Below, piece after piece: positions 13,822 through 46,306 of a stretch of 64,000 bases of DNA. Both the position numbers and the translations under genes were made by a program. Below the pieces are notes generated by a model. That model saw only the letters and a list, made by a program, of their open reading frames with translations. It was not told the DNA's origin and made no database searches. Numbering within the stretch: the first letter of the stretch is position 1; each line of letters starts with the position of its first letter. Origin of the DNA: an uncultured Gammaproteobacteria bacterium (lineage in GTDB: Bacteria; Patescibacteriota; Microgenomatia; UBA10105; UBA927); NCBI GenBank assembly GCA_964394685.1, contig CAYMYO010000002.1:98148-162147 (forward strand). The letters are read 5' to 3'.

Positions 13822-13822
13822 T

Positions 13823-26933: not shown

Positions 26934-26959
26934 TTTGTTCTTCATAGTACAATAGAACC

Positions 26960-27442
26960 ATGGTATCTATTACTATTCAATCGGTTAGGCAGAGTGATAT
27001 TCCTTGGATAACCGAGGTCTTTCAAACACGTTGGGGAGGAGATTTTATCGTAAGCCGGGGCAAGAAACATAACCCAAAAGATCTTTTTGGTTTTATTGCA
27101 TGTATTGATACACAAAAAGTTGGGCTACTGACATTTAGAAACGATGATGATTCAATAGAATTAGTTTCGTTAGATAGTCTTTGTGATAATCAGGGAATCG
27201 GAACGGCATTAGTTCAAGCGTTAATTAATTATGCTAAAGAAAATAACAAACGGCGGATATGGCTTGTGACTACAAATAATAATACTCATGCGATGCGGTT
27301 TTATGAACACAGAGGATTGAGAAAAGTTCGCGAATATCTAAATGCAATAGTTGAATCAAGAAGAATAAAGCCATCAATACCGCTTACAGATGAATTTGGA
27401 GTAGAAATCAAAGATGAAATTGAATACGAGTATCAATTATGA
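26960..27442 (+). CDS. GNAT family N-acetyltransferase
   Basis: GNAT motif A-like QGIGTALVQALINYAKENN...RFYEHRGL. Confidence 0.7.
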   Translation: MVSITIQSVRQSDIPWITEVFQTRWGGDFIVSRGKKHNPKDLFGFIACIDTQKVGLLTFRNDDDSIELVSLDSLCDNQGIGTALVQALINYAKENNKRRIWLVTTNNNTHAMRFYEHRGLRKVREYLNAIVESRRIKPSIPLTDEFGVEIKDEIEYEYQL

Positions 27443-28527
27443 GACAAAAATGTTTTATATTTTCTATTACTTAGATCTGCAAGCTTCTTGGCTCTTTGTT
27501 TTTTCACATCAGATGGTAGTTCTTTGTAAATACAAGACAATTTCACTGCTGCGGTTCCTGGTCGGGGCGAATACCGAAAGACATGAAATTTTGAAATTGG
27601 GCTTTTTTTCAGAAACTCATACGTTTTTTGAAATTCTTTTTCAGATTCTCCGGGAAATCCGACGATGACGTCTGTTGCAATGAGCGCGTGCGGGTTTATT
27701 TTATGAAGTGTCGTTAATCGGTTCATCAATTCTTCTTGTTTATACTGGCGGTTCATACGTTTTAGAATTGTGTTGGATCCGGATTGAATAGGAATATGGA
27801 AAAAATGAACAAATCTAGTGTTATCTTTATTGTTTTTGTACCATGAAAGGAATTCTGGAGTGATGCTCCAAGGATGAATGGATCCAAAACTTACTCGATC
27901 AATTTTTGTATGCGTAAGTATTGAATCGATAAGTTCCATAAGTGTTTCTTCAGTGTCTTGACCAAAATACTCTGTATTAATCGCTGTTAAAATAACTTCT
28001 TGAATGAGAATATTTGATTGCTGTATTTCGGTTACAATATCAGCAATTTTTCGTGAAACTGCTCTTCCGCGAGTAAACGGTACAATACAATACGAGCAAA
28101 ACCGATTACATCCATCCTGAATTTTTATCATCATCCGACCTGAGTTTAAAAACTTATCATGGTTAACATTGTCATCCGCCAGCTGGCGGATCCCAGTATG
28201 ATTTTTGGTTAGATGCATTAATAATTGTGCTATTGAATTTTTCTTTTTATTATGTATCCAATAATCAACTTCTTTCAAAAGAGTGTTATTTTTAAACCAC
28301 AACGTCGCAGAGCATCCCGTAACGACGATTTTGGTCTTTGGAAATTTTTTCCGTATTTGATAGATATGTTGTCGCACTTCCCGTTCTGCTTTTCCGGTAA
28401 CTGCACAGGAGTTAATGATATAGAATTCTGGACGTTTTTCATCCCATGAAAACCCTGCATCAATAAGTTTTTTATCTAATACTTGTTTTTCGGCCTCATT
28501 GACACGACAGCCGAATGAAAAGCTCAT
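27433..28527 (-). CDS. MiaB/RimO/MtaB-family radical-SAM methylthiotransferase-like protein without a C-terminal TRAM domain
   Basis: An N-terminal MTTase domain (FGCRVNEAE...INSCAVTGKAE) is followed by the radical-SAM CNRFCSYC and PIQSGSNTILKRM. The protein ends where a TRAM domain would begin. The track ORF extends to 28551; the start at 28527 is chosen on the family N-terminus. Confidence 0.7.
   Translation of the reverse strand: MSFSFGCRVNEAEKQVLDKKLIDAGFSWDEKRPEFYIINSCAVTGKAEREVRQHIYQIRKKFPKTKIVVTGCSATLWFKNNTLLKEVDYWIHNKKKNSIAQLLMHLTKNHTGIRQLADDNVNHDKFLNSGRMMIKIQDGCNRFCSYCIVPFTRGRAVSRKIADIVTEIQQSNILIQEVILTAINTEYFGQDTEETLMELIDSILTHTKIDRVSFGSIHPWSITPEFLSWYKNNKDNTRFVHFFHIPIQSGSNTILKRMNRQYKQEELMNRLTTLHKINPHALIATDVIVGFPGESEKEFQKTYEFLKKSPISKFHVFRYSPRPGTAAVKLSCIYKELPSDVKKQRAKKLADLSNRKYKTFLSHN
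28174..28191. repeat. 18-bp GC-rich perfect palindrome ATCCGCCAGCTGGCGGAT; near-identical copies lie at 1234-1251 and 49997-50014
   Basis: Read directly. It is a perfect palindrome here, inside the MiaB-like CDS. The other copies match at 16/18 and 17/18 positions. Confidence 0.6.
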
Positions 28528-28652
28528 AAACGTCCGATTCATGAAGCTCATTGTAGCACACCATTCTTGCTTGATCCTGTGTTATTAAAGGATCAGCTTA
28601 GAATGGTGGGTACCCGTAGTAATTCTGATTACAGAGGGTATACAATAACTTC

Positions 28653-29255
28653 ATGTTGCCAATGAAGGTTCGAAACCATTTTAAAAAAGTTGACCCAATT
28701 TTATTTTCTTTAATCAAGAAACATGATGATATATCAATACAGCATTCGAATAACTATTTTTTGAGTTTATGTCGTGAGATCATGACACAACAACTGGCGA
28801 GCGGAGCGGCACGTGCAATTTTCGGGAGATTTGAGAAATTGTTTGAAAAAAGAGAAGTGGCACCGGAAATGGTTTTATCTCTTTCCGATCAAACAATTCG
28901 CGATACCGGAGCTTCATGGGCAAAGGTCAAATACATAAAAAGTCTTGCACAATGTGTCGCTTCGAAAACAATTGATTTGGACGGTATTGAGAAATTAAAT
29001 AACAAAGAAGTGATACAAGAGTTAATAAAAGTGAAAGGAATTGGTCCGTGGACAGCGGAAATGTTTTGTATGTTTTCACTCGGCCGTGAAGATGTATTTT
29101 CGTATGGAGATTTAGGTCTTCGTCACGCAATACAAAAAGCATATGGATTCAAAAAAGAACCAACAATAAAACAAATGGAGAAAATCACTTCAAAATGGTC
29201 ACCATATCGTACCTACGGAGCGCTTCTTCTTTGGAATAGTATTGATACAGTATAA
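28653..29255 (+). CDS. HhH-GPD DNA glycosylase, AlkA-like (3-methyladenine DNA glycosylase II)
   Basis: Helix-hairpin-helix VKGIGPWTAEMFCMF plus the catalytic Asp region SYGDLGL. Confidence 0.75.
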   Translation: MLPMKVRNHFKKVDPILFSLIKKHDDISIQHSNNYFLSLCREIMTQQLASGAARAIFGRFEKLFEKREVAPEMVLSLSDQTIRDTGASWAKVKYIKSLAQCVASKTIDLDGIEKLNNKEVIQELIKVKGIGPWTAEMFCMFSLGREDVFSYGDLGLRHAIQKAYGFKKEPTIKQMEKITSKWSPYRTYGALLLWNSIDTV

Positions 29256-30090
29256 TGAAATTATGAAAGATAAATATTCTGCTATTTGGTTATCGCATTC
29301 ATCAATTACTGACTATCTCAAATGTCCGCGCGCGTATTTTTTGAAAAACATGTATCGGGATCCGAAAAATAATCATAAGATTGCCATCATGCAACCGGCT
29401 CTTGCTCTTGGACAAACCGTGCACAGTGTTTTAGAATCACTTTCAACGCTTCCTGTGGAAGATCGTTTAATAGAATCGCTTGTAACGAAATTTGAAAAAA
29501 CGTGGGAAGAAATATCCGGGAAAAAAGGCGGATTTACAACAAGTGAAGAGGAAGAAAAATATAAAAAACGGGGGATAGAAATGATGGAACGGATTATGAA
29601 AAATCCCGGACCAATTTTGAAAAAAGCAATAAAAATCCGCCAAGAATTGCCGTATTTTTGGCTATCGGAAGAACAGAATATAATTCTCTGCGGCAAACTT
29701 GATTGGCTGGAGTATCTTGAGGATGTTGACAGTATTCGGATTATTGATTTCAAAACAGGAAAATTTGATGAAGATCCGGATTCCTTACAACTTCCTATTT
29801 ACATACTTCTTGCAACCAACTGTCAGACAAAAAAAGTATATGGTGCTCAATACTGGTATCTCAATCGTGATATTGCACCCGTTGACGTAGTTCTTCCCAC
29901 AGTAGAAGATGCGACAAAACGGCTTCTTGATATTGCCCGAACTATTTCTCTTGCACGAAAACTTGAACGGTTTGTGTGTACTCGGAAAGACGGATGTCCT
30001 GCATGTACACCCTATGAAATGGTGTTAACAGGAAAAGCAGAATTTATCGGCGTAGGAGTATATAATCAGGATACGTATATATTAAAATAA
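29242..30090 (+). CDS. Cas4-like PD-(D/E)XK nuclease with a 4-Cys cluster (DUF83/RecB-like); standalone, with no CRISPR array or cas genes in the window
   Basis: An N-terminal Cys in DYLKCPRAYF, the core IIDFKTGK, and the C-terminal CTRKDGCPACTPY, which is the Cas4/AddB-type Fe-S arrangement. Confidence 0.65.
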   Translation: MIQYNEIMKDKYSAIWLSHSSITDYLKCPRAYFLKNMYRDPKNNHKIAIMQPALALGQTVHSVLESLSTLPVEDRLIESLVTKFEKTWEEISGKKGGFTTSEEEEKYKKRGIEMMERIMKNPGPILKKAIKIRQELPYFWLSEEQNIILCGKLDWLEYLEDVDSIRIIDFKTGKFDEDPDSLQLPIYILLATNCQTKKVYGAQYWYLNRDIAPVDVVLPTVEDATKRLLDIARTISLARKLERFVCTRKDGCPACTPYEMVLTGKAEFIGVGVYNQDTYILK

Positions 30091-30102
30091 AGGAGGATCA
30101 CC

Positions 30103-30603
30103 ATGTCAACAAATACACTGTCAGTTACAATAAAAAAAATTATTACACTGGAAACAGCGATTTTTACGTTAGCATTTTGTGTGCCGCTTCTGTTTAATGG
30201 TTCACAGATTGTTACTGGAAGTATAATAAATACTCTTTTGTTTATTTCAGCAGCTAAACTGTCAAAGCGGGCGTTGCCATTCATCGCGATCATTCCAAGT
30301 TTGGGCGCTGTATCAAACGGTATTCTTTTTGGCCCATTTACTATATATCTCGTTTACTTTCTGCCATTTATTTGGATGGGAAATTATCTTTTGATGTGGA
30401 TAGCAAAATCCAGCAATTTTTTGATTGCCGCACTTGCGAAAAGTACATTTTTGTTTTTGATTGCTTATGTTTTTGTATCTTTCCATATTGTTCCAAAAAT
30501 ATTTTTAACTGCGATGGGAGTTTTACAGCTTGTTACTGCCATTGTTGGAGGAATAGCTGCCATCGGGATATCAAAATATATTTTAAAACCAGCTCATGAA
30601 TGA
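30103..30603 (+). CDS. polytopic membrane protein (about 5 TM), function unknown; co-operonic with the next gene
   Basis: 166 aa, with a strong Shine-Dalgarno AAAGGAGG and a stop overlapping the next start (ATGAATGA). Confidence 0.4.
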   Translation: MSTNTLSVTIKKIITLETAIFTLAFCVPLLFNGSQIVTGSIINTLLFISAAKLSKRALPFIAIIPSLGAVSNGILFGPFTIYLVYFLPFIWMGNYLLMWIAKSSNFLIAALAKSTFLFLIAYVFVSFHIVPKIFLTAMGVLQLVTAIVGGIAAIGISKYILKPAHE

Positions 30604-31399
30604 AGTAGAACAACTCGTTCAACTAATAAAAGATAAAAAGCATCTTGTTGCGATGCTTGCTCCGTCGTTTCCAATTGTTTTTGATTATCCGGATATTGTA
30701 AAACGTTTGAAACAAATAGGATTTCAGGAAGTTTTGGAGGTATCGGTGGGAGCTGAAATTACAAACGAACAGATGCTTGCGGAGTTAAATAAAGATAAAA
30801 AGAAACGATTTATTACCAGTCCCTGTGCAAGTGCTGTTCGGCTTATTCGGAAAAAATATCCGCAGCTTGAAAAATATCTTGCGTACAACGTTGATTCGCC
30901 AATGGTTGCTACCGCAAAGATTGCCCATCATAAGTGGCCGGATGCAAAGGTTGTGTTTATCGGACCCTGTATAGTGAAACGGCTTGAGGCATCAGAAGAT
31001 CATCCGGATTTAGATATTTTAGTTTTGACGTATAAGGAGCTCAATGAAGTATTGAAGGTTATTCAACCAGATGAAGCCATACCAGTTGAGAAATTATTTG
31101 ATTTAGAAAATTCCAGCACTCGGTTGTATCCAATATCCGGAGGATTAGCAGCCACAAGCTGTTCGTCACATTTACTTTCAAGTGATGAACTACAGGTGAT
31201 ATCAGGATGGAAAAACTGTGCAGAGGCGCTGGATAATTTTGAGAAAAACACCTCTGTTCGGCTTCTTGATATTCTCTTTTGCGATGGAGGATGTATTAAT
31301 GGCCCGGGGATTGAAAGCACGTTATCACTTGATGAGCGAAGAAATAAATTACTCGGATATATCGACCAGAGAAAAGCAGAATCTTCAGTTTCTTCGTGA
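30596..31399 (+). CDS. [FeFe]-hydrogenase H-domain-like protein, truncated, with a degenerate first cluster motif
   Basis: VAMLAPSFPIVFDYPD...GFQEVLEVSVGAEI matches the start of the H-domain. Motif L1 is degenerate (FITSPCASAV versus consensus TSCCPxW). Motif L2 is present as GPCIVKRLE (consensus PCxxKxxE). Motif L3 is present as FCDGGCINGPG (consensus CxGGCxxG). The protein is 267 aa with no ferredoxin-like N-terminus. Confidence 0.6.
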   Translation: MNEVEQLVQLIKDKKHLVAMLAPSFPIVFDYPDIVKRLKQIGFQEVLEVSVGAEITNEQMLAELNKDKKKRFITSPCASAVRLIRKKYPQLEKYLAYNVDSPMVATAKIAHHKWPDAKVVFIGPCIVKRLEASEDHPDLDILVLTYKELNEVLKVIQPDEAIPVEKLFDLENSSTRLYPISGGLAATSCSSHLLSSDELQVISGWKNCAEALDNFEKNTSVRLLDILFCDGGCINGPGIESTLSLDERRNKLLGYIDQRKAESSVSS

Positions 31400-31532
31400 C
31401 AAATTCGGGAATTTGTGTATACTACGAAAACAAAAGTGTAAAAGATTGTTTTCTCAGTATAAACCCATCTAATCAGATTTTTCGCTTTACAAGCTGCAAA
31501 TCTGAGTAAGATGGGTATACAATACTCCTACT

Positions 31533-32600
31533 ATGATGACGACGATCAATTGTCCCTACTGCGGGAAACCTGTTGAGATATCAAAAGCGATTGAAGAGGA
31601 TCTTCGACATGCAATTGAAGATGACGTAAAGAGTAAATTGCAGGAAAAAGCAGTTTTAGAGGTGAAAGAAAAAGAGAGAGAATTATTGGAGACAAAAAAA
31701 CAACTTGCTGAACTTATCAGACAACTTCGTGAGGAAAAAGTAGCACGCGAAAATGTGGAAGTGACGATGCAAAAAAGACTGTTGGAAGAACAGGAAAAAA
31801 TCAGAGTGAAAGCCAAGGAAGAAGATTCCGAAAAACACAGATTGGAGCTGAAAGAAAAAGAGACGCAGCTGGAAAGTATGCGAAAAACCATTGAAGAGTT
31901 GCAGCGTAAGGGAAGTGTCGGGTCACAACAGTTGCAGGGAGAGGTACAGGAGCTGGATCTGGAGCAAACACTGCATAACACATTTCCTCAAGATGCAATT
32001 GTTCCAATAGGAAAAGGAGTATTGGGAGCAGATATCAGGCAGGTTGTTAAAAGTCCGATGGGTATGGATTGCGGGACGATTCTTTGGGAATCAAAGCGGA
32101 CAAAGGCATGGTCAGATGGATGGATAGGAAAACTCAAAGAAGATTTGCTTCATGACAAAGCACACATCCCGGCAATCATTTCCGATACGCTTCCGGATGA
32201 GGCAAAATCCGGAATGGGATTCAAAGACGGCGTGTGGATTGCGTCACATAAACTCGCATTACCATTAGCTGCGCTTCTTCGAAAATCACTGTTGGACGCA
32301 GCCAAGCAGAAAAAAATTGCTGGAGCCCAGTCGTCAAAAGCAGAAGAGCTTTATGGGTTCGTAACCAGCCACGATTTTCAACATCAGATGGAAGCAATGA
32401 TTGAAACCTATCAGGACATGCAGAAAGAAATTCAAAAAGAACGTATGTCGTTTGAGCGAAGTTGGAAACTTCGCGAAATGCAGGTCAGCAGATTATTGAC
32501 TGGTGTAGCAGGACTCTATGGTAGCATGCAAGGAATTGCTGGAGCTGCACTTGCTCCAATTAAAAGCCTCGAATTGCCAAGCGGTGAACAATTGGAGTAG
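31533..32600 (+). CDS. DUF2130-like protein: an N-terminal zinc ribbon plus a long coiled coil
   Basis: CPYCGKP is followed by ~130 aa of K/E-rich coiled coil and a conserved C-terminal domain. Confidence 0.45.
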   Translation: MMTTINCPYCGKPVEISKAIEEDLRHAIEDDVKSKLQEKAVLEVKEKERELLETKKQLAELIRQLREEKVARENVEVTMQKRLLEEQEKIRVKAKEEDSEKHRLELKEKETQLESMRKTIEELQRKGSVGSQQLQGEVQELDLEQTLHNTFPQDAIVPIGKGVLGADIRQVVKSPMGMDCGTILWESKRTKAWSDGWIGKLKEDLLHDKAHIPAIISDTLPDEAKSGMGFKDGVWIASHKLALPLAALLRKSLLDAAKQKKIAGAQSSKAEELYGFVTSHDFQHQMEAMIETYQDMQKEIQKERMSFERSWKLREMQVSRLLTGVAGLYGSMQGIAGAALAPIKSLELPSGEQLE

Positions 32601-32611
32601 GATAGAGCTAT

Positions 32612-33124
32612 ATGATAAAAAAATCAAAAACATTCCCAATGGGAGTTAAAATTCTTATCGGCTGCGTCGGGTTACTTGTTATAGTGGGAATTCTTATGGG
32701 GACCATTGGAAGCGTCATTTTTTCCAAATTTGGCCTCAATTTCATGAAAAAAGCAGTGGAAACAAAAACCGGCGCAGAGATTAATGTCGGCGAAGGAAAA
32801 ATTCCAACCGGATTTCCAAAGGATTTTCCGTTGTATGCTGGGGCGAAAGTTGAAGGGAATATCTCAGGAGCTGAGAATAAAGCGGGAAAGGGATTTTGGT
32901 TAATTTTATCAACTCCAGACGCGGCTGAAAAAGTAACCGCATTTTACGAAACAAATTTACCCAAAAACGGATGGACTGTTGGTAATACGATGAATATTGG
33001 GCCATCGTCAACATGGGAAGTAACAAAAGGGGATATGGCAGGGGCTGTGATAGTAGCGACAGATGAAAAAGAAAAAGGGACAAGTATTGTTATAACACTG
33101 GCTCCAAAAGAAAAGGAAGAATAA
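32612..33124 (+). CDS. membrane-anchored hypothetical protein
   Basis: An N-terminal TM helix followed by a soluble domain; no recognisable motif. Confidence 0.4.
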   Translation: MIKKSKTFPMGVKILIGCVGLLVIVGILMGTIGSVIFSKFGLNFMKKAVETKTGAEINVGEGKIPTGFPKDFPLYAGAKVEGNISGAENKAGKGFWLILSTPDAAEKVTAFYETNLPKNGWTVGNTMNIGPSSTWEVTKGDMAGAVIVATDEKEKGTSIVITLAPKEKEE

Positions 33125-33125
33125 T

Positions 33126-33593
33126 ATGAACGGAAATAAGACAGTTATAGCAATATTACTGTCTGCACTCATGATCTGCGCGACCATTTATTATGTTGGG
33201 AAAAAGCCGGACAAAATTCCGACAGTTATCGTTCCGGAAAGCAATCAGTCGCAAACAGCAATTGCGACGCCAACCGCGGAAATACCAACACTAACAATAG
33301 ATGATCTTGCGCTTATTACCAAAGCAATAGCTCTCAAAACCGGTCTTTCTGAAACGGCAATCAACGTGACCATTTCAAAACACATTGGCGACTACGCAAA
33401 AGGCGGGATAGTAGAAAAGACAAGTGAAGTTGGCGGAGCCCAGTGGTTTGCGGCAAAGAAAAACGGCGCATGGGTTATTGTGCATGATGGGCAGGATTAT
33501 CCGAAATGCAGTGTACTTGTTGGATTTACATTTCCAAAAGAAATATTGGATAGTTGTTGGGACGATGCGACAAACAAGTTAAAAAGTTTGTGA
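33126..33593 (+). CDS. membrane-anchored hypothetical protein
   Basis: An N-terminal TM helix followed by a soluble domain; no recognisable motif. Confidence 0.4.
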   Translation: MNGNKTVIAILLSALMICATIYYVGKKPDKIPTVIVPESNQSQTAIATPTAEIPTLTIDDLALITKAIALKTGLSETAINVTISKHIGDYAKGGIVEKTSEVGGAQWFAAKKNGAWVIVHDGQDYPKCSVLVGFTFPKEILDSCWDDATNKLKSL

Positions 33594-34552
33594 TCAAACG
33601 ATACATAGGCATTTGTATACTTCTTTTTGGAATAGGACTTTATTTTTATTTTTTTCAAAAAGATCAAACGGTGTCACTCTCTCCGATAGTAGAACAATCA
33701 ACATGGACGCTGATAGCTACAGGTGATATTATTCCCGCCCGGTCAGTGAATTACAAAACACTTACGTATAAAGATTTTACCTGGGCGTGGAAGAATATTG
33801 CGCCAATAATAAAAGTTGGTGATATCACGGTTATTAATTTAGAATCTCCGCTTATAGATAATTGTCCAATAACCAACGAAGGCTTCAAATTTTGCGGAGA
33901 CAGCCGTCACATCGAAGGACTGGTTCATGCCGGCGTTGATGTGGCGACACTTGCCAATAACCACATTGGAAATTATGGAAAAAGTGGAATTGATGAAACA
34001 GTACAGCTGCTTCGATCCCATGGTATTGATGTTGCTGGGATTAATGAGGAACCGCCGATATGGGTTGTTAACAACATTCGTGTTGGATTTCTTGCATATA
34101 ACGATATTGGCGCAAAAGAAGAAGGAGTGTCGTGGGCGGATACAAATGTTATGGAAAAGGAAATTCAGAAGTTACGGAATAGTGTTGATGTATTGGTGGT
34201 GTCGATGAGTTGGGGAGAAGAATATATGGTTACACCGTCAGCCAGACAAAAAGAATTGGCTCATTTTATTATTGATAGCGGCGCGGATCTGATTTTAGGC
34301 AATCACCCTCACTGGATTCAGCCGGTCGAAGTGTATCAAGGTAAATATATTGTGTACGCGCATGGCAATACCATATTTGATCAAATGTGGAGCGAAGAAA
34401 CAAAAACAGGTGTTATCGGGAAATATACATTTTCAGGAATGCGGCTTACAAATGTCGAGTTTATACCAACGTATATCAAAGATTATGGTCAGCCAACGCT
34501 TCTTACCGGCGAGGCAAAAAAAGAAATATTACAGAAAATAATGATACTATAA
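33554..34552 (+). CDS. CapA-family (PGA_cap) metallophosphatase-like protein
   Basis: GDITVINLESP...LANNHIGNYGKSG...GNHPHWIQPVE...YAHGNTIFDQ. The track start is a TTG; the true start is uncertain. Confidence 0.75.
   Translation: MLGRCDKQVKKFVIKRYIGICILLFGIGLYFYFFQKDQTVSLSPIVEQSTWTLIATGDIIPARSVNYKTLTYKDFTWAWKNIAPIIKVGDITVINLESPLIDNCPITNEGFKFCGDSRHIEGLVHAGVDVATLANNHIGNYGKSGIDETVQLLRSHGIDVAGINEEPPIWVVNNIRVGFLAYNDIGAKEEGVSWADTNVMEKEIQKLRNSVDVLVVSMSWGEEYMVTPSARQKELAHFIIDSGADLILGNHPHWIQPVEVYQGKYIVYAHGNTIFDQMWSEETKTGVIGKYTFSGMRLTNVEFIPTYIKDYGQPTLLTGEAKKEILQKIMIL
34457..34552 (+). repeat. direct repeat copy A, the in-frame capA 3' end
   Basis: About 75% nt identity to 35954-36049; it encodes EFIPTYIKDYGQPTLLTGEAKKEILQKIMIL*. 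Confidence 0.6.
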
Positions 34553-34582
34553 ATGTATGAGGAAAATTATAACTCTAAATTT

Positions 34583-34606
34583 AATGTTATAGAATTCAAT
34601 AACATT
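34583..34606. repeat. 24-bp palindromic site, copy 1 (AATGTTATAGAATTCAATAACATT)
   Basis: 8-bp arms around a GAATTC core. It lies inside a ~57-bp segment that duplicates an internal part of the KilA-N gene. Confidence 0.6.
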
Positions 34607-34730
34607 AGAAAAGAAGCAGGATTTAATATTTAAACACATCGAATTCGACGGGTTTAAAAATAAACCAACATGTAATTTAATTATGGCGAATTTGCCATAA
34701 TAAAAAAGAATATAAAATAACAAAGTATTT

Positions 34731-35558: not shown

Positions 35559-35559
35559 A

Positions 35560-36049: not shown

Positions 36050-36101
36050 TATGTTTACGTTATTATTCACCCATTCTGCCTGCATTAAAAAAAATGTTTT
36101 A

Positions 36102-38357: not shown

Positions 38358-38367
38358 AGTTATTTAG

Positions 38368-39003
38368 TCAACGTTTTATGGATTTAAAGACAAACCCCTT
38401 TTTTTGTTGCGAAATAAATTCTTTCAAAAAATTAATGTCTTTTGCAGACAGGATTTTTTCGTCAAAAGCGACTTTTAACAAATTATTAATATTTGTAATC
38501 GAACACACATCTACTGATAATCTTTCTTTAATAAAATCATCATGACCATAGCTAAAAATAGCATGTACATATATTTGATAACCCAAGCGTTTTAATTCAT
38601 ATATTGCCGGTTGAATTGTAGCTCCGGACACAATGACATCATCTATGATTACAACTTTATTTCGTCCTGTCGGAATTTGTCCAACAAACCTTCCTTTTTC
38701 GGCATATTCTTTATCACTTTTCCGATATAATACCAGCGGAATATTTAACTTATCAGCAAGTATTGAAGCAAAATATGATCCGCCGCTTTCAATGCCACAA
38801 ACGAGGTCAGTATGAGGGGGTATGATACTCAATAAATCATCAGTAATTATTTTCCTTAGTTTAATGTTATTTAATGTATTTTTAATATTGATAAAAATCG
38901 GGGTCATCCTGTTAGGTTGTACTTCAAAAAATATTTTAGGGCTGTACTTTAATACGCCGGGAGAAGTAACCAATAATCTTTCAAGTTCAAAATTAGAGTT
39001 CAT
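38368..39003 (-). CDS. type I phosphoribosyltransferase, orotate PRTase-like
   Basis: PRPP-binding loop VVIIDDVIVSGATI. The overall layout (GxLKYSPKIFF, GIESGGSYFAS) resembles PyrE. Confidence 0.6.
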   Translation of the reverse strand: MNSNFELERLLVTSPGVLKYSPKIFFEVQPNRMTPIFINIKNTLNNIKLRKIITDDLLSIIPPHTDLVCGIESGGSYFASILADKLNIPLVLYRKSDKEYAEKGRFVGQIPTGRNKVVIIDDVIVSGATIQPAIYELKRLGYQIYVHAIFSYGHDDFIKERLSVDVCSITNINNLLKVAFDEKILSAKDINFLKEFISQQKKGFVFKSIKR

Positions 39004-39165
39004 AGATATACTTATTTATCGAATCGTTTCGCAAAATTTAAGGAATTTATTATTGCATCCTTTTATTCAAGTTAAAGCTGATTATAGCATTATAATAATC
39101 TGTAATGATAGTTTGTATTCTTTATACCGTACCTGTTATATATGAGTTTCTGGTATAATTGTTTC

Positions 39166-39717
39166 ATGCTATATATTTTGGGGGGAGCATCAAGATCAGG
39201 AAAATCCATAATTGCCCGTAGATTTGTTTCGGAAAAGCAAATACCTTTTTTTTGCTTAGACGTTTTAATTACCTCTTTGCAAGAGATCCCATCCCTAGAC
39301 ATTAAACATGGGCAACCTATTATAAGCAAATCAGAAAAGCTGTGGCCGGTAGTTAAACCACTACTTACTCATTTATTTAGGGAGGAACTAAATTATTTGA
39401 TTGAAGGTGATGGGATACTTCCAAGCAAGATAGCCGAATTAATAAAGGATTTTTCAAATGAAATTAAAGCATGTTTTGTCGGCTTTTCTGAGATAAGTCT
39501 TCAAGACAAATTCAAGAAAATAAAAGAATTTGGAGAGAACAAAGATGACTGGACAAAAAGAGTTTCTGATGAAAAATTAATGTCAAACATTGAGGATATG
39601 ATTATGTTTAGTAAGTATCTTAAATCTGAGTGTAATAAATATAACATTCGTTATTTTGATTCATCTGATAATTTTTGTGAATATCTTGAAAACGTATTTC
39701 AGTATTTAACAAAATAA
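39166..39717 (+). CDS. P-loop kinase, chloramphenicol-phosphotransferase (CPT)-like fold
   Basis: Walker A ILGGASRSGKS, similar to the CPT-family GxSSxGKS. The ATG at 39166 is preferred over the track start. Confidence 0.45.
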   Translation: MLYILGGASRSGKSIIARRFVSEKQIPFFCLDVLITSLQEIPSLDIKHGQPIISKSEKLWPVVKPLLTHLFREELNYLIEGDGILPSKIAELIKDFSNEIKACFVGFSEISLQDKFKKIKEFGENKDDWTKRVSDEKLMSNIEDMIMFSKYLKSECNKYNIRYFDSSDNFCEYLENVFQYLTK

Positions 39718-39730
39718 GTTTGAATCTCCT

Positions 39731-41293
39731 CTACCGCTCCGTCATTATATATTTTAAGGCCGTCTTGTTGTTGGGTTCACAGATCAGAGCATTTTCAAAA
39801 CAATGAATGGCAGTATTATAAAAACGTTGGTTTAGAAATTTTTCTCCCTGAGTGATATGATTTTGTATTGGTTGTTTGTACCAAAACGTAAGCAGGGAAG
39901 ATTTTGGATTTTCAACGGCAAATTTTGATAATGTTTTGTGGGCTAATTGATACTGATGGTTAGCAGCTTGAGCTATTGCTATATTAATAGCAACTTCAGG
40001 AATGGTGGATGCTGCCTGTTTGAAGTTGTCTATAGCTTCAGTATATTTATGTAATCCCAATAGAGCTTTTCCCCGTTTCAATGTTAAATCTGCATTCCTG
40101 TGTGTTGTGTTTTTTGAAAGTATGTTCAGAGATTCGGTGAATTTCCCTAACGCAAGTAACACGTCAATGTGATGATATCTCGGCTTGCTGTCATTCGTAT
40201 TACGTTTTTTTGTATGAATAGGTGTGGGGTTTTGTGTATAATATTCGATAATTCGTTTCTTTGCATGGGTCAGCTGGTTCGGGTAATTATTTATCTGACC
40301 TGATTTAAGAAGTGTATAAAAAAGTTGTCGGTTTTGTTTGTATTCAAGATGCTTATTTTCAGTTCTTGCGGGGTGGCTTATGTGTAAACCGGAAGCCGCA
40401 TAGACAGGTACAACAAAGTTTCCTACCGAAATTGCTTTAGCCGCTAGATGACCATCCTCACATCCCCACCCACAAAACCGCTCATCATACCCGCCGATTT
40501 CATAGTATGTAGATTTCGGCAAGCTGAAAAGTGCTCCAATAACGAGATCAGATAGAAGCCATGGATCATAGTTATTACGCATCCAGAGGCCGTGCAAATG
40601 GCCCAAATTTTTAAAATGGTTACTTGTCAGGCACATGTTGTCTGGAAATCCAGGAGAGGGGAAAGCTATTCTTTCATCTCTTACAAGAGATGAATATTGA
40701 TGGGACCCATATCGACGAATGTATTTTGGATTTATCAGAAGACTGTTTTTGGATATATTTGAACGAAAACCAGCCAACAATACGTTCGAGAATTGTCGGT
40801 GTCGCTCGATAAAATGCTCAATGGTATAGTGTGACAAAACCATGTCTGCGTCGCAAGAAATAATAATTTCATTTTCAGCAATAGAAATTCCGGTGTTTAG
40901 CGCTTGAGCTCGTCCGTGGTGTTTTTGTTTTATGGCTGTAAGATTTAATGCAAGCGTATTTTTTTTAATAATTTCCCATGTCCCGTCATCGGATCCGTCA
41001 TCTACCACGAGAACTTGCAGTCTATTTTGATGCTCTACATTAAAACTACTTTGTTCAATCGATGTTAAGCAGGAAAGTATAGATGATGCAGCATTTCTTG
41101 CTGGAATAACTACGGTTGCTGTTATTTTTTTAGCAGAAGTTGATTTTGCCGGTGGCGAAAAAGGATCCAGCAGGTCTAATTTATTAACCTTAAAGTATTT
41201 TTCCTCAATTTGGGAATAGTCGTTGCTTTTTTTCTCAAGAGCTTTTTTTTGATTCATTGTATGTTGGTTTTTGCAAAACCCATATAACAGCAA
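39731..41293 (-). CDS. family-2 glycosyltransferase fused to C-terminal TPR repeats
   Basis: A GT2 domain (VVIPARNAASSI...LQVLVVDDGSDDGT...ISCDADMV) followed by TPR-like repeats. The start may be the internal Met at 41257. Confidence 0.7.
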   Translation of the reverse strand: MLLYGFCKNQHTMNQKKALEKKSNDYSQIEEKYFKVNKLDLLDPFSPPAKSTSAKKITATVVIPARNAASSILSCLTSIEQSSFNVEHQNRLQVLVVDDGSDDGTWEIIKKNTLALNLTAIKQKHHGRAQALNTGISIAENEIIISCDADMVLSHYTIEHFIERHRQFSNVLLAGFRSNISKNSLLINPKYIRRYGSHQYSSLVRDERIAFPSPGFPDNMCLTSNHFKNLGHLHGLWMRNNYDPWLLSDLVIGALFSLPKSTYYEIGGYDERFCGWGCEDGHLAAKAISVGNFVVPVYAASGLHISHPARTENKHLEYKQNRQLFYTLLKSGQINNYPNQLTHAKKRIIEYYTQNPTPIHTKKRNTNDSKPRYHHIDVLLALGKFTESLNILSKNTTHRNADLTLKRGKALLGLHKYTEAIDNFKQAASTIPEVAINIAIAQAANHQYQLAHKTLSKFAVENPKSSLLTFWYKQPIQNHITQGEKFLNQRFYNTAIHCFENALICEPNNKTALKYIMTER

Positions 41294-42110
41294 CAGGTAA
41301 TCCTTCGAGCGCTTTGGATATGGTTGTTATATTTAGTTTGGACCCCTTTTGTAGAATTTGAATCTGTTCTGTCATTATTTTCGGTTCCTGACATTGTAGT
41401 ATTTTGAGAGACGCCTTATTAAACGCATTGATGTATGTACTATGCCAGAAAACATTATCTTTAATATAACCCCACCCGTCTTTTTTATCATGGAACTCTG
41501 CGTGAGCACCTAATGCGACAAGCCAGGGATGTACGCTTGAAATCACAATATATCCGCCAGGGAGTACGACCCGGGTAAGTTCTTTGATAACTTCGTCAAT
41601 ATTTGTTACATAATGTATTGCGAGTCCGCATACCACGAGGTTAAATTTTTCGTTTTCAAAGGGTAGTGTATTTAAGTCACCCTGGATAAAGTTTATATTT
41701 TTGTTTTTCTTTTTTGCTAATTTAAGCATGTCGTCCGATATATCAATTCCCGTTACATTGTGTCCAATTGAATTAAGAAATGCACTATATCTTCCTGTGC
41801 CACAAGCTGCATCTAAGGCGGCACCAGGAGTAAATTTTTTCAATATTGATTTAACAACAGGTTCTTCAACTTGAATTAAGATATTTTGCTCTTTATCATA
41901 TGTTTTTGACCATATCTTATATCCTGTTTTAATACCATGTTCAATTGCTTTTTGGTCACGAATATTGTGGACGTCTTTTTCGGTCCTGGAGATAAATGAA
42001 ATTTCTTTAAAAATAGACAATATAGACGCATTATTTCCAATAAGCCAATTTCTCAGTAACGCTAAACCGGCATATCCGAGCGCGCGTTGTTTTTCGTAGT
42101 TGATAACCAT
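41235..42110 (-). CDS. class I SAM-dependent methyltransferase (Methyltransf_11-like)
   Basis: SAM motif I ALDAACGTGRYSAFL and motif post-I VTGIDISDDM. Confidence 0.7.
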   Translation of the reverse strand: MVINYEKQRALGYAGLALLRNWLIGNNASILSIFKEISFISRTEKDVHNIRDQKAIEHGIKTGYKIWSKTYDKEQNILIQVEEPVVKSILKKFTPGAALDAACGTGRYSAFLNSIGHNVTGIDISDDMLKLAKKKNKNINFIQGDLNTLPFENEKFNLVVCGLAIHYVTNIDEVIKELTRVVLPGGYIVISSVHPWLVALGAHAEFHDKKDGWGYIKDNVFWHSTYINAFNKASLKILQCQEPKIMTEQIQILQKGSKLNITTISKALEGLPVAVIWVLQKPTYNESKKSS

Positions 42111-42150
42111 TATCCTGTATAATAAGATAGTCTGTTTGAAAGGGCAATAT

Positions 42151-43359
42151 ATGGATCCATACTATAAGAAAGACATAACGTTTCACTATAATGACCGTGA
42201 GTTACATTTTCGTGTTTCACAATCACTGTTTAGTTCGCAGGATATTGATTTGGGAACCAGGCATCTCATTAAGACTATTGCAGATGTCAAACTACAAAAC
42301 TGTAGAAAAATATTAGATTTAGGATGTGGCTACGGACCTATCGGTATTGCCTTAAAAACTGTGCACCCATCCAGTGAAGTTCAGATGGTTGATAAGGATG
42401 CTCTCGCCCTTAGTTATTGCTGCCAAAATCTTGAACTTAATAATCTATCAGGTGTCAAAGTATATGCTAGTCTTGGCTACGACGATGTTGCAGATAACGA
42501 TTTCGATTTAATAGTTTCAAATATTCCCGCAAAGGTAGGAGATAGAGTCATTACACATATGCTAAAGGATTCCAGATTTCATCTCAAACGCGGCGGTCGA
42601 ATGGCTATCGTCGTTATAGATGCCATAGGTGATTACATAACTAAAGAACTCAACGATTCTGGAATAAATATAGTGTTTACTAAAAAATGGCCAGGGTATT
42701 TAGTTTTTCACTATGAATTTTTACCGGCGCATGTTTCAAATACGAGGCAGTCTCCAGATTCATTTATGAGCGGTATTTATGATCGTGAGCAAAAACTCAT
42801 TACTCGCGATGGGATTAGTTTTTTTATACAAACAACATATAATTTACCAGAATTTGACACGATTAGTTATGAAACAGATTTAGTGCTTAATTCTCTAAAG
42901 ATATTTAGAAATAAACAGTTTAATACCGTTCTGGTATTTAACCCCAGACAGGGATATATTCCTGTTACACTGTCTAAAATAACAAGCGTTCGAAAAATTT
43001 GTCTTGTTGATCGGGATATGCAAGCATTAAAATTGTCACAAAAAAACCTTTTGTCCAATGGGTACCCAGCGGAGAATATATCGTTAACACATCAGGTAGG
43101 AATTTCTATTCAGGACGAAGAGTTAATTGATTGCATAGTGGGGGTTCTGGATGAGGATAATAATCTAGATATTCAGTCTCTCTATTTACAAGAAGCAGCA
43201 AGCCAGATTTCGAAAAGCGGAATTGTAATTTTTGCAGCAGGTTCCACTATGATTACGCGTCTGGAGGGTTTGCTTCATAGACAAAAAATTTTGCAAATAG
43301 TAGCAAGAAAGCGATCAAAAGGGAAAAGCGTTATCATCATGAAACGCAAAGCTCAATAA
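42151..43359 (+). CDS. SAM-dependent methyltransferase with an N-terminal MTS (RsmC/RlmG-type small) domain and a C-terminal degenerate second Rossmann-like domain
   Basis: ILDLGCGYGPIGIAL...VQMVDKDALAL...DLIVSNIP (an NPPF/NIP-type motif IV). The ATG at 42151 is preferred over the TTG at 42100. Confidence 0.55.
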   Translation: MDPYYKKDITFHYNDRELHFRVSQSLFSSQDIDLGTRHLIKTIADVKLQNCRKILDLGCGYGPIGIALKTVHPSSEVQMVDKDALALSYCCQNLELNNLSGVKVYASLGYDDVADNDFDLIVSNIPAKVGDRVITHMLKDSRFHLKRGGRMAIVVIDAIGDYITKELNDSGINIVFTKKWPGYLVFHYEFLPAHVSNTRQSPDSFMSGIYDREQKLITRDGISFFIQTTYNLPEFDTISYETDLVLNSLKIFRNKQFNTVLVFNPRQGYIPVTLSKITSVRKICLVDRDMQALKLSQKNLLSNGYPAENISLTHQVGISIQDEELIDCIVGVLDEDNNLDIQSLYLQEAASQISKSGIVIFAAGSTMITRLEGLLHRQKILQIVARKRSKGKSVIIMKRKAQ

Positions 43360-43428
43360 ACTCTTTTGGTGAAATGATTACCCCAGTAAAGAGCTACCGG
43401 TCGCATGAGGAAGAAAAAAATTTCTGAG

Positions 43429-43809
43429 TTATACTTTAGTCTTCTGTGGACATCTAATTTTTTCTTGAACTACATCCGCTTTTCCGATTTTGATGGGATT
43501 AATCAGTTCCTGTAGCCAATATGCGTTCGTTGGTAAAGCGTCTACCGAAGCGGTGATAATATATTTCCCTAAAGCACGGCTACAAACAAAATCCCGGCTT
43601 TTTCCAAACATAAATTCTTCAGGCTTAATACGAGTTATGTTTGTTGTGTATGATTGGAGTTTATTAAAGGTTTCATCTCCTTTGCCGTAATATAATACAA
43701 CCAGTCCGATAGGGAAGATTTACTTTTTGAGTTTTCAGTTTTTTTAAAAATTTGTCCAAGATTTTTCCAGTGTCTCTCACCATTATGGTTACTGAAATTA
43801 AATCTCTCA
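43429..43809 (-). pseudogene. probable frameshifted remnant of a glycosyltransferase-like gene
   Basis: Two adjacent minus-strand reading frames. One reads MRDLISVTIMVRDTGKILDKFLKKL..., a GT2-like N-terminus, and ends at a TGA. The other reads ...ILPIGLVVLYYGKGDETFNKL...CPQKTKV. Together they cover most of an otherwise empty 450-bp gap. Confidence 0.3.
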
Positions 43810-43812
43810 TAC

Positions 43813-44787
43813 TTATTTCCAGTTTTTAGGTGTTAAACCGCTAGGCAACTCAAGTTTCGTATATGTATATTCCTGCGGCCCTTGCTGTTTCACCCAGTTC
43901 CAGGTCTCCTCCAATGCTTTTTGAAATGGCGTATCTTTGTAGCCGAACACCTGTTTGATTAACGTATGATCTGGCACGGCAGTATTAATTTCCTGTACCC
44001 GATCTGGTAAGTATGCCGGTAAAATAGAACGTTTGCATATTTTTTGGATAGCTTCAGAGAGTTCGTTTATTGACCAATCCATATCCGAACCAACGTTAAA
44101 TGTCATTCCTGCAACCTGTTCGAATCCACAACGATAGATGATATAAACAACATCTTTAACATAGGAGAAGCAGCGTCGCATTTCGCCGTTCCCATATATG
44201 GAGTACGGTTTATTTCTCAGGATGTGATTCATAAAAAGTGTCACAACGTTCCGATATGGATCTTTCATGTTTTGCCTCGGTCCGAATACGTTGTGAGGTC
44301 TGACGATAACGAATTCAAATCCGTGTACCTGACTCATCACTTTAAGTGAATTTTCGTTTGTGAGTTTGCTGATTCCGTAAATATCCTGCGGAATCGGAGT
44401 GTCCGATTCTTTAAAGGTTATTGTGATTGACCCATACACGGCGACACTGGAAGTAAAAACGAACCGCTTTATTTTTTTTGCCCGAATAGACGGGACGAGC
44501 GTGTTGAAAAAAACATTTATATTATTATTCGTTATTTCAATAGGAGAGAACAACGATTTACCTTCTGCGGCATCAGCCGCTAGTCCATACACTATTTCTG
44601 GGGAAATCGACTCAATTATCCTTTTAGACTTCTCGGTGTCTTTAAGATCTAGATAAAAATTATGGCATTTCGTATTCTCGTTCCTATTGGTTCCGGAGAT
44701 TCCATAGACCTCATGTCCTTTTGACAACAACAGATCGACAAGATGTGACCCGATAAATCCGGAATGGCCAGTTACAAGACATTTCAT
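43813..44787 (-). CDS. NAD-dependent epimerase/dehydratase (extended SDR family)
   Basis: The N-terminal Rossmann motif MKCLVTGHSGFIGSHLV and the catalytic YxxxK region (YGISK). The start is taken at the Met giving the canonical N-terminus. Confidence 0.75.
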   Translation of the reverse strand: MKCLVTGHSGFIGSHLVDLLLSKGHEVYGISGTNRNENTKCHNFYLDLKDTEKSKRIIESISPEIVYGLAADAAEGKSLFSPIEITNNNINVFFNTLVPSIRAKKIKRFVFTSSVAVYGSITITFKESDTPIPQDIYGISKLTNENSLKVMSQVHGFEFVIVRPHNVFGPRQNMKDPYRNVVTLFMNHILRNKPYSIYGNGEMRRCFSYVKDVVYIIYRCGFEQVAGMTFNVGSDMDWSINELSEAIQKICKRSILPAYLPDRVQEINTAVPDHTLIKQVFGYKDTPFQKALEETWNWVKQQGPQEYTYTKLELPSGLTPKNWK

Positions 44788-44868
44788 AATAAGTACCTGA
44801 ATTATCTGCTTTTTGGCCCGTAACATCAACTGTTGAGTAATGAGTACCGTTGAAGTACAATTATATCA

Positions 44869-46005
44869 ATGAAGAGGCTGGTTCTCACCGCACAGGATTT
44901 TGCATTTGGATCAATAGGGCCACTACTGTATCTTGCGGATCTGCTCAAAGACAAAGAACATGAGTTGATTTTTGTCGGTTTTGGTACTTCTTTGCAACTT
45001 GCTAAAAAATTCCCGTTTGACGAAATTTATGAGCTGGATACCGAAGATCCTAAAACCACTGCAGAGCTAGAGGCAATCATATCCAAATCAGACGCCGTCA
45101 TTAGCTGTACAGATATTCCAAGTATTATAGCTGCCAAGAAGTTTAAAAAAATAACGGTTTGGGAAGATATTTTATTTTGGTTCTGGCCGGAAATTCCAGA
45201 AGCGCTCTTTGATGTCGATCTATATATTCGTGAACGGGCGTTTGACGCAAGCGTGAATGAGGCTAGATATGGTACTAAGATAAAAAACCTTTTCACGGTG
45301 GGTCCGATTATGGGTACCGTTCAAAAACGTATTAGGACGAATCAAGCAATTATTTCATACGGCGGTGCACAGGCGACGCATGTGTATCAGGTCGGCAAAG
45401 ATACTAATTACCCCTTCGTCATGACAGATATTTTATCTAAATATGTTGATTGGTCAGATTTTAAGCGTGTGATTTTAGCGACCAGTGAACAAGTGATTGA
45501 ACAATTGAAAACTCGTTTTTCGAACACACCATTTGAATTTGCCACACTTGCACACGATACATTTTTAACGGAGATGTCTCGGTCTCAGGTAATACTCATC
45601 ACTCCTGGCTTGATAACAACGCAATGTGCTTTTTATTCGGAAACTCCGGTAATTTTTCTTCCGGGATCAAACGATAGTCAGTATTTGCAGATAAATGATC
45701 TGCGTAGCCTCGGTTTGGCGCCAGCGTCTGTTGGGTTAAATGATTTTCTTCCAAAGCTCGATTTATTACACCTGCCCGGTAGTGAAAGTACGAAGCTAGT
45801 GATGGAACAATTACGGTTACTTGAAAAATCGCTGGACACTCAGATGCAAATTGGTACTCGTATAAATGAGTTAGTTAAAACTCGTGATATTTGGTCCAAG
45901 GAATCTGTACCTAAAGGCAAAATGTATATAGATTCGTTGGGAGGTAATGGAGCTAGTTTAGCAGCAAAAAAAATTAAGAAACTTTTAACTTTGCAAAATA
46001 AGTAA
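44869..46005 (+). CDS. GT-B fold glycosyltransferase (MurG/UGT-like), putative
   Basis: A two-Rossmann-domain layout with a Gly-rich N-terminal loop AFGSIGPLLYL and C-terminal nucleotide-sugar-binding-like segments. This is an inference from the pattern only. Confidence 0.4.
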   Translation: MKRLVLTAQDFAFGSIGPLLYLADLLKDKEHELIFVGFGTSLQLAKKFPFDEIYELDTEDPKTTAELEAIISKSDAVISCTDIPSIIAAKKFKKITVWEDILFWFWPEIPEALFDVDLYIRERAFDASVNEARYGTKIKNLFTVGPIMGTVQKRIRTNQAIISYGGAQATHVYQVGKDTNYPFVMTDILSKYVDWSDFKRVILATSEQVIEQLKTRFSNTPFEFATLAHDTFLTEMSRSQVILITPGLITTQCAFYSETPVIFLPGSNDSQYLQINDLRSLGLAPASVGLNDFLPKLDLLHLPGSESTKLVMEQLRLLEKSLDTQMQIGTRINELVKTRDIWSKESVPKGKMYIDSLGGNGASLAAKKIKKLLTLQNK

Positions 46006-46135
46006 TCCACAATATTTCGACCAGGATTATAGGATTATTCAAATCATAAAAAGAGGAAGCACATTGGGATATACTGAAATAGTACATTCTCTAGACATAC
46101 AACACTTTTTTTTGTACAATAGGGAATAAGAAAGC

Positions 46136-46165
46136 ATGAACTGCTTTGTGAAAGCAGTTCTTTTT
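46136..46165 (+). terminator. rho-independent terminator downstream of the glycosyltransferase gene
   Basis: GAACTGCTTT gtga AAGCAGTTC, a perfect 10-bp stem, followed by TTTTTATG. Confidence 0.5.
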
Positions 46166-46306
46166 ATGTCTATGCCACGTAGTGAATTTCGCTCAATGTT
46201 GAAAGCATTGAATAAATGATTTCATTCGTTGGCTATTGTATAAATGTTATTTTAAAGAAAAGAAGATTGATATTTCGTAAGAAATAGCGAAATTCTACTA
46301 CCTGGT

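Follow-up and report, generated by a model that had tools for sequence, protein, structure and literature searches.

Why should rpsG and fusA, which follow one another in the str operon of most bacteria, lie 19,373 nucleotides (nt) apart in a genome where the rest of that operon is in its usual order? The question is raised by a 64,000-nt stretch of contig CAYMYO010000002.1, hereafter the window, which averages approximately 40% GC and contains no tRNA gene. A prediction made from the letters of the window alone (the original prediction) placed the end of rpsG at 26933 and the start of fusA at 46307 with an accessory block between them, coordinates that proved correct, and read the interval as an insertion of ~19 kb into a hotspot for accessory DNA. 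Our analysis upholds this reading only in part, as the sequence from 34553 to 46090 is indeed additional in the window, but the two genes are split in every relative sampled and the first 7.6 kb of the interval appears inherited. The reading we favor, at a probability of about three in four, is that the rpsG/fusA junction was broken in an ancestor of the clade and that ~11.5 kb of composite DNA was added later in the lineage of the window.

In the canonical str operon of E. coli and most bacteria, rpsL, rpsG, fusA and tufA follow in a fixed order and orientation and are succeeded by rpsJ and the S10 operon. The window retains this order and orientation, and the pairs on either side of the gap remain adjacent, with spacers of 6 nt between rpsL and rpsG and 76 nt between fusA and tuf. 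In contrast to the canonical operon, in which we would expect fusA on the same strand as rpsG and at most 300 nt away, the two genes are 19.4 kb apart and fusA is preceded by a conserved promoter-like element and leader of its own. As a control for adjacency, 80 S7-matched loci from unrelated phyla (S7 at most 59% identical) were collected, 77 of which had enough downstream sequence. In 75 of these 77 bacteria, no more than 300 nt separate fusA from rpsG; in one the distance is 702 nt, and in the last the 10 kb beyond rpsG contain no fusA. The separation of rpsG and fusA is neither a chance arrangement nor common among bacteria at large, and no description of it was found in the searchable literature on the str operon, the candidate phyla radiation or Gottesmanbacteria synteny.

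Named S7 homologues at 75–100% identity carry Patescibacteria, Microgenomates or Candidatus Gottesmanbacteria labels. We inspected the contigs encoding nine distinct relatives, with S7 identities from 92% down to 75% (individual loci are given L numbers), and rpsG and fusA are not adjacent in any of the nine. The core flanks are the same throughout (rpsL/rpsG 82–97% and fusA/tuf/rpsJ 82–96% identical), the fusA flank being colinear with that of L088 through L3/L4, and between them the ten genomes hold gaps of 3.2–19.4 kb with at least three types of content. Gap lengths are 8916 nt in L082, 4761 nt in L088, 7462 and 7102 nt in L087 and L089, 7224 and 7343 nt in L105 and L106, 5271 nt in L109/L110, 3192 nt in L107/L108 and more than 10,000 nt in L091. 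Type A (the window, L082, L084 and L088) comprises a minus-strand MtaB-like gene, HhH-GPD, PD-(D/E)XK, DUF2130 and two small proteins, with or without TspO and CapA. Type B (L087, L089, L105/L106, L109/L110 and, in part, L091) holds HhH-GPD, LigT, GSDH, DsbD and thioredoxin genes, and type C (L107/L108) a short-chain dehydrogenase, VKOR and unknowns. The PD-(D/E)XK gene sits within the gap in type A and 5' of rpoB in L091 and some type B genomes. Since all relatives are split and their gaps differ in content, the break appears to be old and clade-wide, and the interval to have been remodelled repeatedly.

The closest relative, L082 (rpoB 97% identical at the amino acid (aa) level), shows where the inherited part of the gap ends. 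Nine genes, from the MtaB-like gene to capA, occur there in the same order at 47–90% aa identity, and the ~7.6-kb stretch they occupy is also present in the same order in L084 and in L088, the latter without the capA, HhH-GPD and Fe_hyd genes. Orthologues of the MtaB-like gene, 68–70% identical, hold the same position in all three, and this first 7.6 kb (27433-34552) looks vertically inherited. Homology to L082 then breaks off sharply at the capA stop codon (34552) and resumes at ~46090; in L082 itself, the capA stop codon overlaps the TAGACA element that opens the fusA leader. No homologue of 34553-46090 was found at this site in six relative loci. Relative to L082, the window alone carries this segment, 140 nt in the fusA leader and a GNAT gene after rpsG, and L082 alone carries TspO and DUF2000 genes and a 315-aa open reading frame (ORF). 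The GNAT gene has no homologue in L082, L084, L087, L088, L089 or L091, and the interval 3' of rpsG that holds it measures 613 nt, versus 85 nt in L082.

Composition changes at the same point. GC content is 0.408 in rpoB-rpsG, 0.419 from fusA onward and 0.387 in the shared backbone (26934-34552), and it is 0.325 in 34553-39730 and 0.379 in 39731-46090. Tetranucleotide distance to the remainder of the window peaks at 139, 163 and 130 in 4-kb segments starting at 34, 36 and 38 kb, compared with a mean of 78 (standard deviation 12, maximum 119) outside the block. In codon usage, the set of SLOG, GuaA, phosphoribosyltransferase (PRTase) and P-loop genes is the sole strong outlier (4.75 versus a null 95th percentile of 3.23). 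The two checks proposed with the original prediction, synteny and composition, give a divided answer: rpsG and fusA are apart in all nine relatives and L082 shares the first 7.6 kb but not 34553-46090, and 34553-39730 is deviant, the backbone near background and the distal segment mildly shifted. Relatives with the same genes, in the same order and of uniform composition, as an ancient lineage-wide arrangement would require, were found for the first 7.6 kb only.

The first piece of the addition lies directly after capA. An 82-nt direct repeat (34460-34541 and 35957-36038, 67 of 82 positions or 82% identical), both copies of which are in the capA reading frame, brackets a KilA-N gene and a 136-aa ORF, and the second copy starts abruptly one base past the stop codon of that ORF. 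The gene predicted to be a KilA-N remnant is intact, although a separate remnant does occupy the 178-nt spacer ahead of it (34553-34730). Its product matches phrog_2657 over its full length (3e-54) and PDC-S22 from residues 2-272 on profile positions 5-275 of 281 (E 6.8e-126), and is 50–59% identical, again over its full length, to proteins of 80 IMG/VR loci, Staphylococcus phage EW and streptococcal satellite phages. These matches make it a predicted phage-type candidate for single-gene defence. PHROG 2657 labels its phage and satellite members "transcriptional regulator"; in contrast to these, the gene here is a solitary chromosomal one between capA and nucleotide-metabolism genes, and not part of a prophage. 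The only mention of PDC-S22 found in the literature comes from a survey of Streptococcus suis, and the 136-aa ORF has no match in Pfam, PHROGs or NCBIfam.

Some integrative elements insert at the 3' end of a protein gene and supply a replacement end, as e14 and phage 21 do at icd in E. coli. The cassette resembles these in having a diverged 3'-end duplicate around phage-related DNA with the target ORF left intact, but differs in that it spans only 1.4 kb, has no recombinase, and consists of the KilA-N gene, the orphan ORF and the KilA-N remnant. At this size and without a recombinase, it would at best be a decayed relic. Had the 10-kb segment integrated in tandem at the same attachment (att) site, a further remnant of the capA 3' end might be present at 46006-46091; this was considered and rejected, as alignments there score no better than shuffled sequence (fraction 0.36–0.73). 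The sequence after the second capA copy shows no similarity to the region upstream of fusA.

The second piece (36051-39730) is the low-GC set of nucleotide-metabolism genes. GuaA scores 572 bits against NF000848 (cut-off 400), is also above cut-off for TIGR00884 and TIGR00888, and carries the GATase, PP-loop and C-terminal domains, as expected of a glutamine-hydrolysing GMP synthase. Its nearest relatives are 77%, 68% and at most 61% identical, the named ones being from other Microgenomates. Given that many S7 relatives are found at 80–94%, this distance suggests that the set came from a different lineage. The PRTase, being closest to orotate PRTases, makes it harder to regard the LOG, GuaA and PRTase genes as a clean purine-salvage set. 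The P-loop protein has no family match, and a sequence search of the PDB with it was empty.

The third piece (39731-46005) is a glycosylation and methylation module that occurs elsewhere as a unit. All six genes are found in the same order in L194 (61–79% aa identity, with the GT2 gene intact) and in L099, and part of the module is present in L094, L096, L101, L104 and L191. No copy was found beside fusA. The closest copy with context, in L191 (88–89%), is followed by rpmF, nusB, rnc and khpA, a locus that is not within the window. DNA homology to L194 spans 39749-45999, limits that agree with the outermost stop codons of the six genes. The pseudogene foreseen in the original prediction is a GT2 glycosyltransferase disrupted by frameshifts and an in-frame stop and lacking ~125 codons relative to the intact GT2 of L099. 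In the metagenome contig L094, an insertion sequence-type rve integrase (9796-10668) and a large serine recombinase (12841-14211) lie a few kb from the module, which hints at how the module may move between genomes.

GT378, the last gene of the module, belongs to a family of ~110 proteins whose named members come from Patescibacteria only, mostly Microgenomates groups. It has no Pfam match, and a PDB sequence search returned nothing. Structural modelling (pLDDT 94.9) gives it a GT-B fold resembling that of GT1/UGT small-molecule glycosyltransferases: YjiC, YojK, OleD and LanGT2 of the GT1 family match the predicted fold (Foldseek probability 1.0, E ~1e-10, TM ~0.55), although their sequence identity to GT378 is 10–15%. 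Two other assignments were rejected. GT378 as a cytosylglucuronate synthase scores 46.8 bits against TIGR04467, far below the cut-off of 300, and the match of the two methyltransferases to the PADLOC system mad2 covers the generic methyltransferase domain only.

Of the 25 coding sequences originally called in the gap, we support 21, together with one pseudogene and two gene fragments. Nearly all of the predicted identities were recovered with Pfam and NCBIfam, Pfam confirming GNAT, MiaB-family radical SAM, HhH-GPD, PD-(D/E)XK, Fe_hyd_lg_C, DUF2130 and PGA_cap in the proximal part, and KilA-N, SLOG/LOG-like, GMP synthase, PRTase, GT2-TPR, two methyltransferases and the epimerase in the remainder. 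Coordinates are collected in Table 1.

Table 1. Features of the rpsG-fusA interval and its flanks, in window coordinates.
Feature	Position	Strand	Assignment and remarks
rpoB	18935-22285		
rpoC	22288-26010		
rpsL	26016-26453	+	Pfam Ribosom_S12_S23; left conserved flank
rpsG	26460-26933	+	Pfam Ribosomal_S7; left conserved flank
GNAT acetyltransferase	26960-27442	+	Pfam Acetyltransf_1; directly after rpsG, lineage-specific addition
MiaB/RimO-family radical SAM methylthiotransferase, best match MtaB	27433-28551	-	TIGR00089, 326 bits (cut-off 251)
Co-directional backbone	28653-34552	+	HhH-GPD glycosylase, PD-(D/E)XK nuclease, 166-aa membrane protein, Fe_hyd_lg_C protein, DUF2130, 170- and 155-aa proteins, CapA/PGA_cap
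capA 3' end, repeat copy 1	34460-34541	+	Contiguous with capA
Spacer with KilA-N gene remnant	34553-34730	+	178 nt; three tandem ~30-nt palindromes starting at 34580, 34629 and 34676
Intact KilA-N gene	34731-35558	+	275 aa; Pfam KilA-N 3e-21; PADLOC PDC-S22; phrog_2657
Orphan 136-aa ORF	35545-35955	+	
capA 3' end, repeat copy 2	35957-36050	+	Displaced; in frame to stop (FIPTYIQDYGQPTLLTGDAKEKVLQKLSVN, then stop)
SLOG/LOG-like	36102-36758	-	Pfam
GMP synthase GuaA	36795-38357	-	Pfam; NCBIfam
OPRT-like phosphoribosyltransferase	38368-39003	-	Pfam; nearest orotate PRTases in PDB
P-loop protein	39142-39717	+	
GT2-TPR	39731-41293	-	
SAM methyltransferase	41235-42110	-	
Two-domain MTS methyltransferase	42100-43359	+	
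GT2 pseudogene	43302-43822	-	
NAD epimerase/dehydratase	43813-44829	-	
GT-B glycosyltransferase GT378	44869-46005	+	
Conserved leader	46092-46166	+	TAGACA-N17-TACAAT 46092-46120; hairpin GAACTGCTTT/AAAGCAGTTC 46138-46160; T-run
Window-specific 140-nt insert	46167-46306	+	~21-nt terminal inverted repeats pairing across the fusA start codon
fusA	46307-48409	+	Pfam; right conserved flank
tuf	48486-49673	+	Pfam; right conserved flank
rpsJ	49689-49997	+	Pfam; right conserved flank, runs on into S10 operon

A conserved leader (46092-46166 in the window) lies 5' of fusA in every relative (L082 19312-19383, L088 15147-15220, and also L087, L089 and L105-L109). Throughout the clade it consists of TAGACA-N17-(T)GTACAAT, an invariant AAGCA, a hairpin with lineage-variable arms and a T-run, with the ATG following 8–25 nt on. 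The promoter-like motif occurs once in the window, versus 0.01 expected, and the leader holds the best promoter-like and terminator-like sites of the region. Such a conserved promoter-like element and hairpin suggest that fusA, tuf and rpsJ are transcribed independently from a predicted promoter. Together with the gap genes on the opposite strand, the conserved promoter-like site also argues against a single rpsL-to-tuf transcript. As the terminator-like hairpin lies between the promoter-like site and fusA, regulated read-through may occur, and the leader is possibly an attenuator-type element for the fusA-tuf-S10 genes. Covariation in the hairpin is weak across seven sequences, and no Rfam family was recognised in the window at gathering thresholds, the match to the leader being at chance level only. 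In the public Gottesmanbacteria assemblies L105 (17651-19801) and L106 (17770-19920), the annotated fusA (716 aa) apparently starts too far upstream, with the promoter and leader inside the annotated FusA N-terminus and the conserved ATGGC start at the second ATG.

In the window, the leader is extended by the 140-nt insert, which is absent from L082 and L088, has a fold z-score of -4.8 and is single-copy in all sequence searched. It could be an element resembling a miniature inverted-repeat transposable element (MITE), or a structured regulatory leader. A 17-codon ORF (MSMPRSEFRSMLKALNK) lies within it.

Taken together, we propose the following order of events. The rpsG/fusA junction would have been broken in the ancestor of a Microgenomates (Gottesmanbacteria-like) clade, and fusA-tuf-rpsJ probably gained a promoter and leader of their own. 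The interval would since then have gained and lost genes independently in each sublineage, like ordinary inter-operon DNA, and in the lineage of the window the ~7.6-kb backbone would have grown by ~11.5 kb, taken up in three or more separate pieces between the stop codon of capA and the promoter of fusA. A KilA-N/PDC-S22 cassette originating from a phage or satellite may have integrated at the capA 3' end, bringing a replacement end and displacing the other copy, and now persists as 1.4 kb without a recombinase. The low-GC nucleotide-metabolism set was probably acquired from another lineage. Finally, a module for the glycosylation and methylation of small molecules or glycans, which appears to circulate in Microgenomates, would have been inserted and is apparently already decaying.

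Several points weigh against this account. The block contains no tRNA and, by Pfam, NCBIfam and PHROGs, no integrase, transposase or recombinase, and pieces two and three have neither flanking repeats nor an att-like repeat. The capA 3' copies are 76% and 79% identical to L082, so neither stands out as the native one. Codon deviation is mild in the module, and the backbone and housekeeping flanks deviate mildly too. The promoter is a predicted one, and the terminator-like hairpin sits between it and fusA. The capA/KilA-N, P-loop/GT2-TPR and GT378/fusA-leader junctions are backed by the source contig only. Lastly, as there are nine relatives and none exceeds 92% in S7, the choice between gain and loss is made on parsimony and composition.

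This choice bears on the alternative that survives best, though we consider it unlikely, namely that all or most of the 11.5 kb was ancestral to the group of the window, L082 and L088 and was deleted in the relatives. Loss is frequent at this locus, with L082 and L088 differing by deletions and insertions and L088 lacking capA, HhH-GPD and Fe_hyd, and homologues of the module at 88–90% identity exist in related organisms. Yet independent and precise losses in both L082 and L088 would be required, the composition at 34–40 kb is deviant, and the capA 3' duplication is an insertion signature. The closest module copy, moreover, is beside rpmF-nusB-rnc, the other copies are elsewhere still, and the nearest GuaA relative reaches only 77%.

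A more speculative proposal arises from palindromes in the KilA-N gene. Across 33 distinct KilA-N alleles, the segment coding FNxxEFxxIK is a 30-nt palindrome, TTTAA(A/T)-N6-GA(A/T)TTC-N6-(A/T)TTA(A/G)A, whose stem positions are 88% Watson-Crick and show three to four pair types at each of positions 4-8; the arms covary, changing from allele to allele while remaining complementary. A perfect 12-mer is present in 17 of the 33 alleles, versus a shuffle mean of 5.6 and maximum of 13. The motif matches 79 times inside KilA-N genes (loci L111-L190), compared with two matches in 1.5 Mb of unrelated loci, and four times in the 64-kb window. One of these four is the palindrome of the window's own gene (34917-34946), and the other three are the stand-alone copies of the spacer (34580-34609, 34629-34658 and 34676-34705), which have three different allele-type stems and each resemble the intragenic palindrome of a different KilA-N allele by blastn and tblastn. 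Stand-alone upstream palindromes with a different stem are also found in L165, L168-L170 and L179. In the stems, G·U pairs outnumber A·C pairs by 23 to 13, a difference too weak to tell an RNA hairpin from a symmetric DNA site. The palindrome could form a hairpin in RNA or DNA, be a site of recombination or act as a symmetric operator specific to each allele. Nothing relevant to KilA-N palindromes was found in the searchable literature.

One could imagine that the KilA-N gene is a hairpin-targeted mobile defence cassette for which the capA-fusA interval is a landing pad and, separately, that the element before fusA is an attenuator not previously described, governing the expression of EF-G, EF-Tu and the S10 operon within the clade. 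The three stand-alone hairpins would then be footprints of serial cassette exchange that is recombinase-independent or hairpin-directed. We regard this proposal as unlikely. If true, it would describe a new kind of hairpin-targeted mobile cassette in a bacterium of the candidate phyla radiation. On closer study, the KilA-N palindrome and the conserved fusA leader could outweigh the split itself in interest.

It is very improbable that the interval extends the translation operon functionally, with the MtaB-like gene, the RsmC/PrmA-like methyltransferase (MT419) and GuaA, as a source of GTP precursors, retained beside rpsG and fusA for their part in protein synthesis. The original statement that the gap genes have no link to translation was nonetheless too strong. 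The MtaB-like gene passes the MiaB/RimO family cut-off, and its best match is the tRNA methylthiotransferase MtaB, although at 334 bits it remains below the TIGR01579 cut-off of 357. GuaA is also genuine, and MT419 has weak similarity to RsmC, PrmC and PrmA, all below cut-off. However, only the MtaB-like gene recurs, in one sublineage and on the opposite strand, the intervals of types B and C contain redox genes and others that are unrelated, and the methyltransferase travels with the glycosyltransferase module at unrelated loci.

The idea of a single recent island of 19.4 kb whose arrival interrupted an intact str operon in this genome fits the accessory-looking genes and an overall GC below that of the flanks, but is hardly credible when every relative is already split, when the first 7.6 kb is syntenic and seemingly orthologous in L082, L084 and L088 (L082 by itself contradicting it) and near background in composition (26934-34552), and when mobility genes and repeats at the outer borders are lacking. 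Equally hard to credit is a joining of the block, or of its second half, to the str genes by metagenome misassembly or binning: the contig is metagenome-assembled and its internal right-hand junctions have no independent cover, but the left junction (rpsG-GNAT-MtaB) recurs in an independent Logan assembly (L001), two assemblies of a relative made independently (L082 and L083) show the same backbone order, the exact S7, KilA-N, SLOG, GuaA, GT378 and FusA proteins all lie on one NCBI contig of 181,223 bp, the conserved fusA leader directly follows the block, and there are no identical junction repeats to mislead an assembler, the capA repeat being 82% identical. Exact copies of the KilA-N, SLOG and P-loop proteins occur in further Logan assemblies.

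With an ancestral break and later composite addition as the preferred reading, the predicted hotspot for accessory DNA stands insofar as gap content differs among sublineages, but not clearly as regards its rate of change. Compared with L082, the ~8-kb gap shows four large indels and the ~2.8 kb upstream of rpoB one, and the rpoB-rpsG block and the block from fusA onward have none, a small sample. Because the indel frequency in the gap about equals that in the non-operon DNA upstream of rpoB, the gap appears to behave as ordinary inter-operon DNA and not as an exceptional hotspot. Integration hotspots or plasticity zones are sites at which variable accessory genes lie between the same two core genes. 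The gap likewise has fixed core flanks in rpsG and fusA, differing gene sets between them, and a candidate defence gene and a portable biosynthetic module among its content. In contrast to such zones, turnover is slow and not clearly above that of adjacent inter-operon DNA, half of the content is kept within the sublineage, and integrase and tRNA genes are absent.

Three further observations concern the backbone and the surroundings of the str genes. The HhH-GPD glycosylase (28653-29255) is 47% identical to its L082 counterpart (11579-12166), compared with 90% for the adjacent PD-(D/E)XK protein, and lies about equally far (47–51%) from every copy present in the other relatives, which points to replacement by another allele or to unusually rapid divergence of that one gene. 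Upstream of rpoB, the rplK-A-J-L genes are missing in the window and in every relative, and the DNA found instead varies by genome (DUF2207, zf-CDGSH, an EamA fragment, PD-(D/E)XK, TspO and DUF1761 in L082-L109); the window has a 438-nt EamA-like piece at 18365-18802 that is absent from L082. On these grounds, rpoBC-rpsLG appears to be a conserved island between two fluid regions. A second low-GC stretch at ~4700-9520 (GC 0.35, tetranucleotide distance up to 119, codon usage 3.89 versus a null 95th percentile of 3.06) holds 2-hydroxyacid dehydrogenase, EamA transporter, MFS transporter and isochorismatase genes on mixed strands and may be another accessory patch.

The split of rpsG and fusA is a new example of known processes, the disruption of an operon and the accretion of accessory DNA between core genes, and reveals no new mechanism. 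It shows a highly conserved bacterial gene adjacency long broken across a sublineage of the candidate phyla radiation, at a site that would then have collected ordinary accessory DNA, among it a candidate defence gene of phage origin, genes for nucleotide metabolism and a portable module for glycosylation. This is useful where the synteny of ribosomal protein genes serves to bin or check such genomes, and for the study of how small symbiotic genomes acquire genes.

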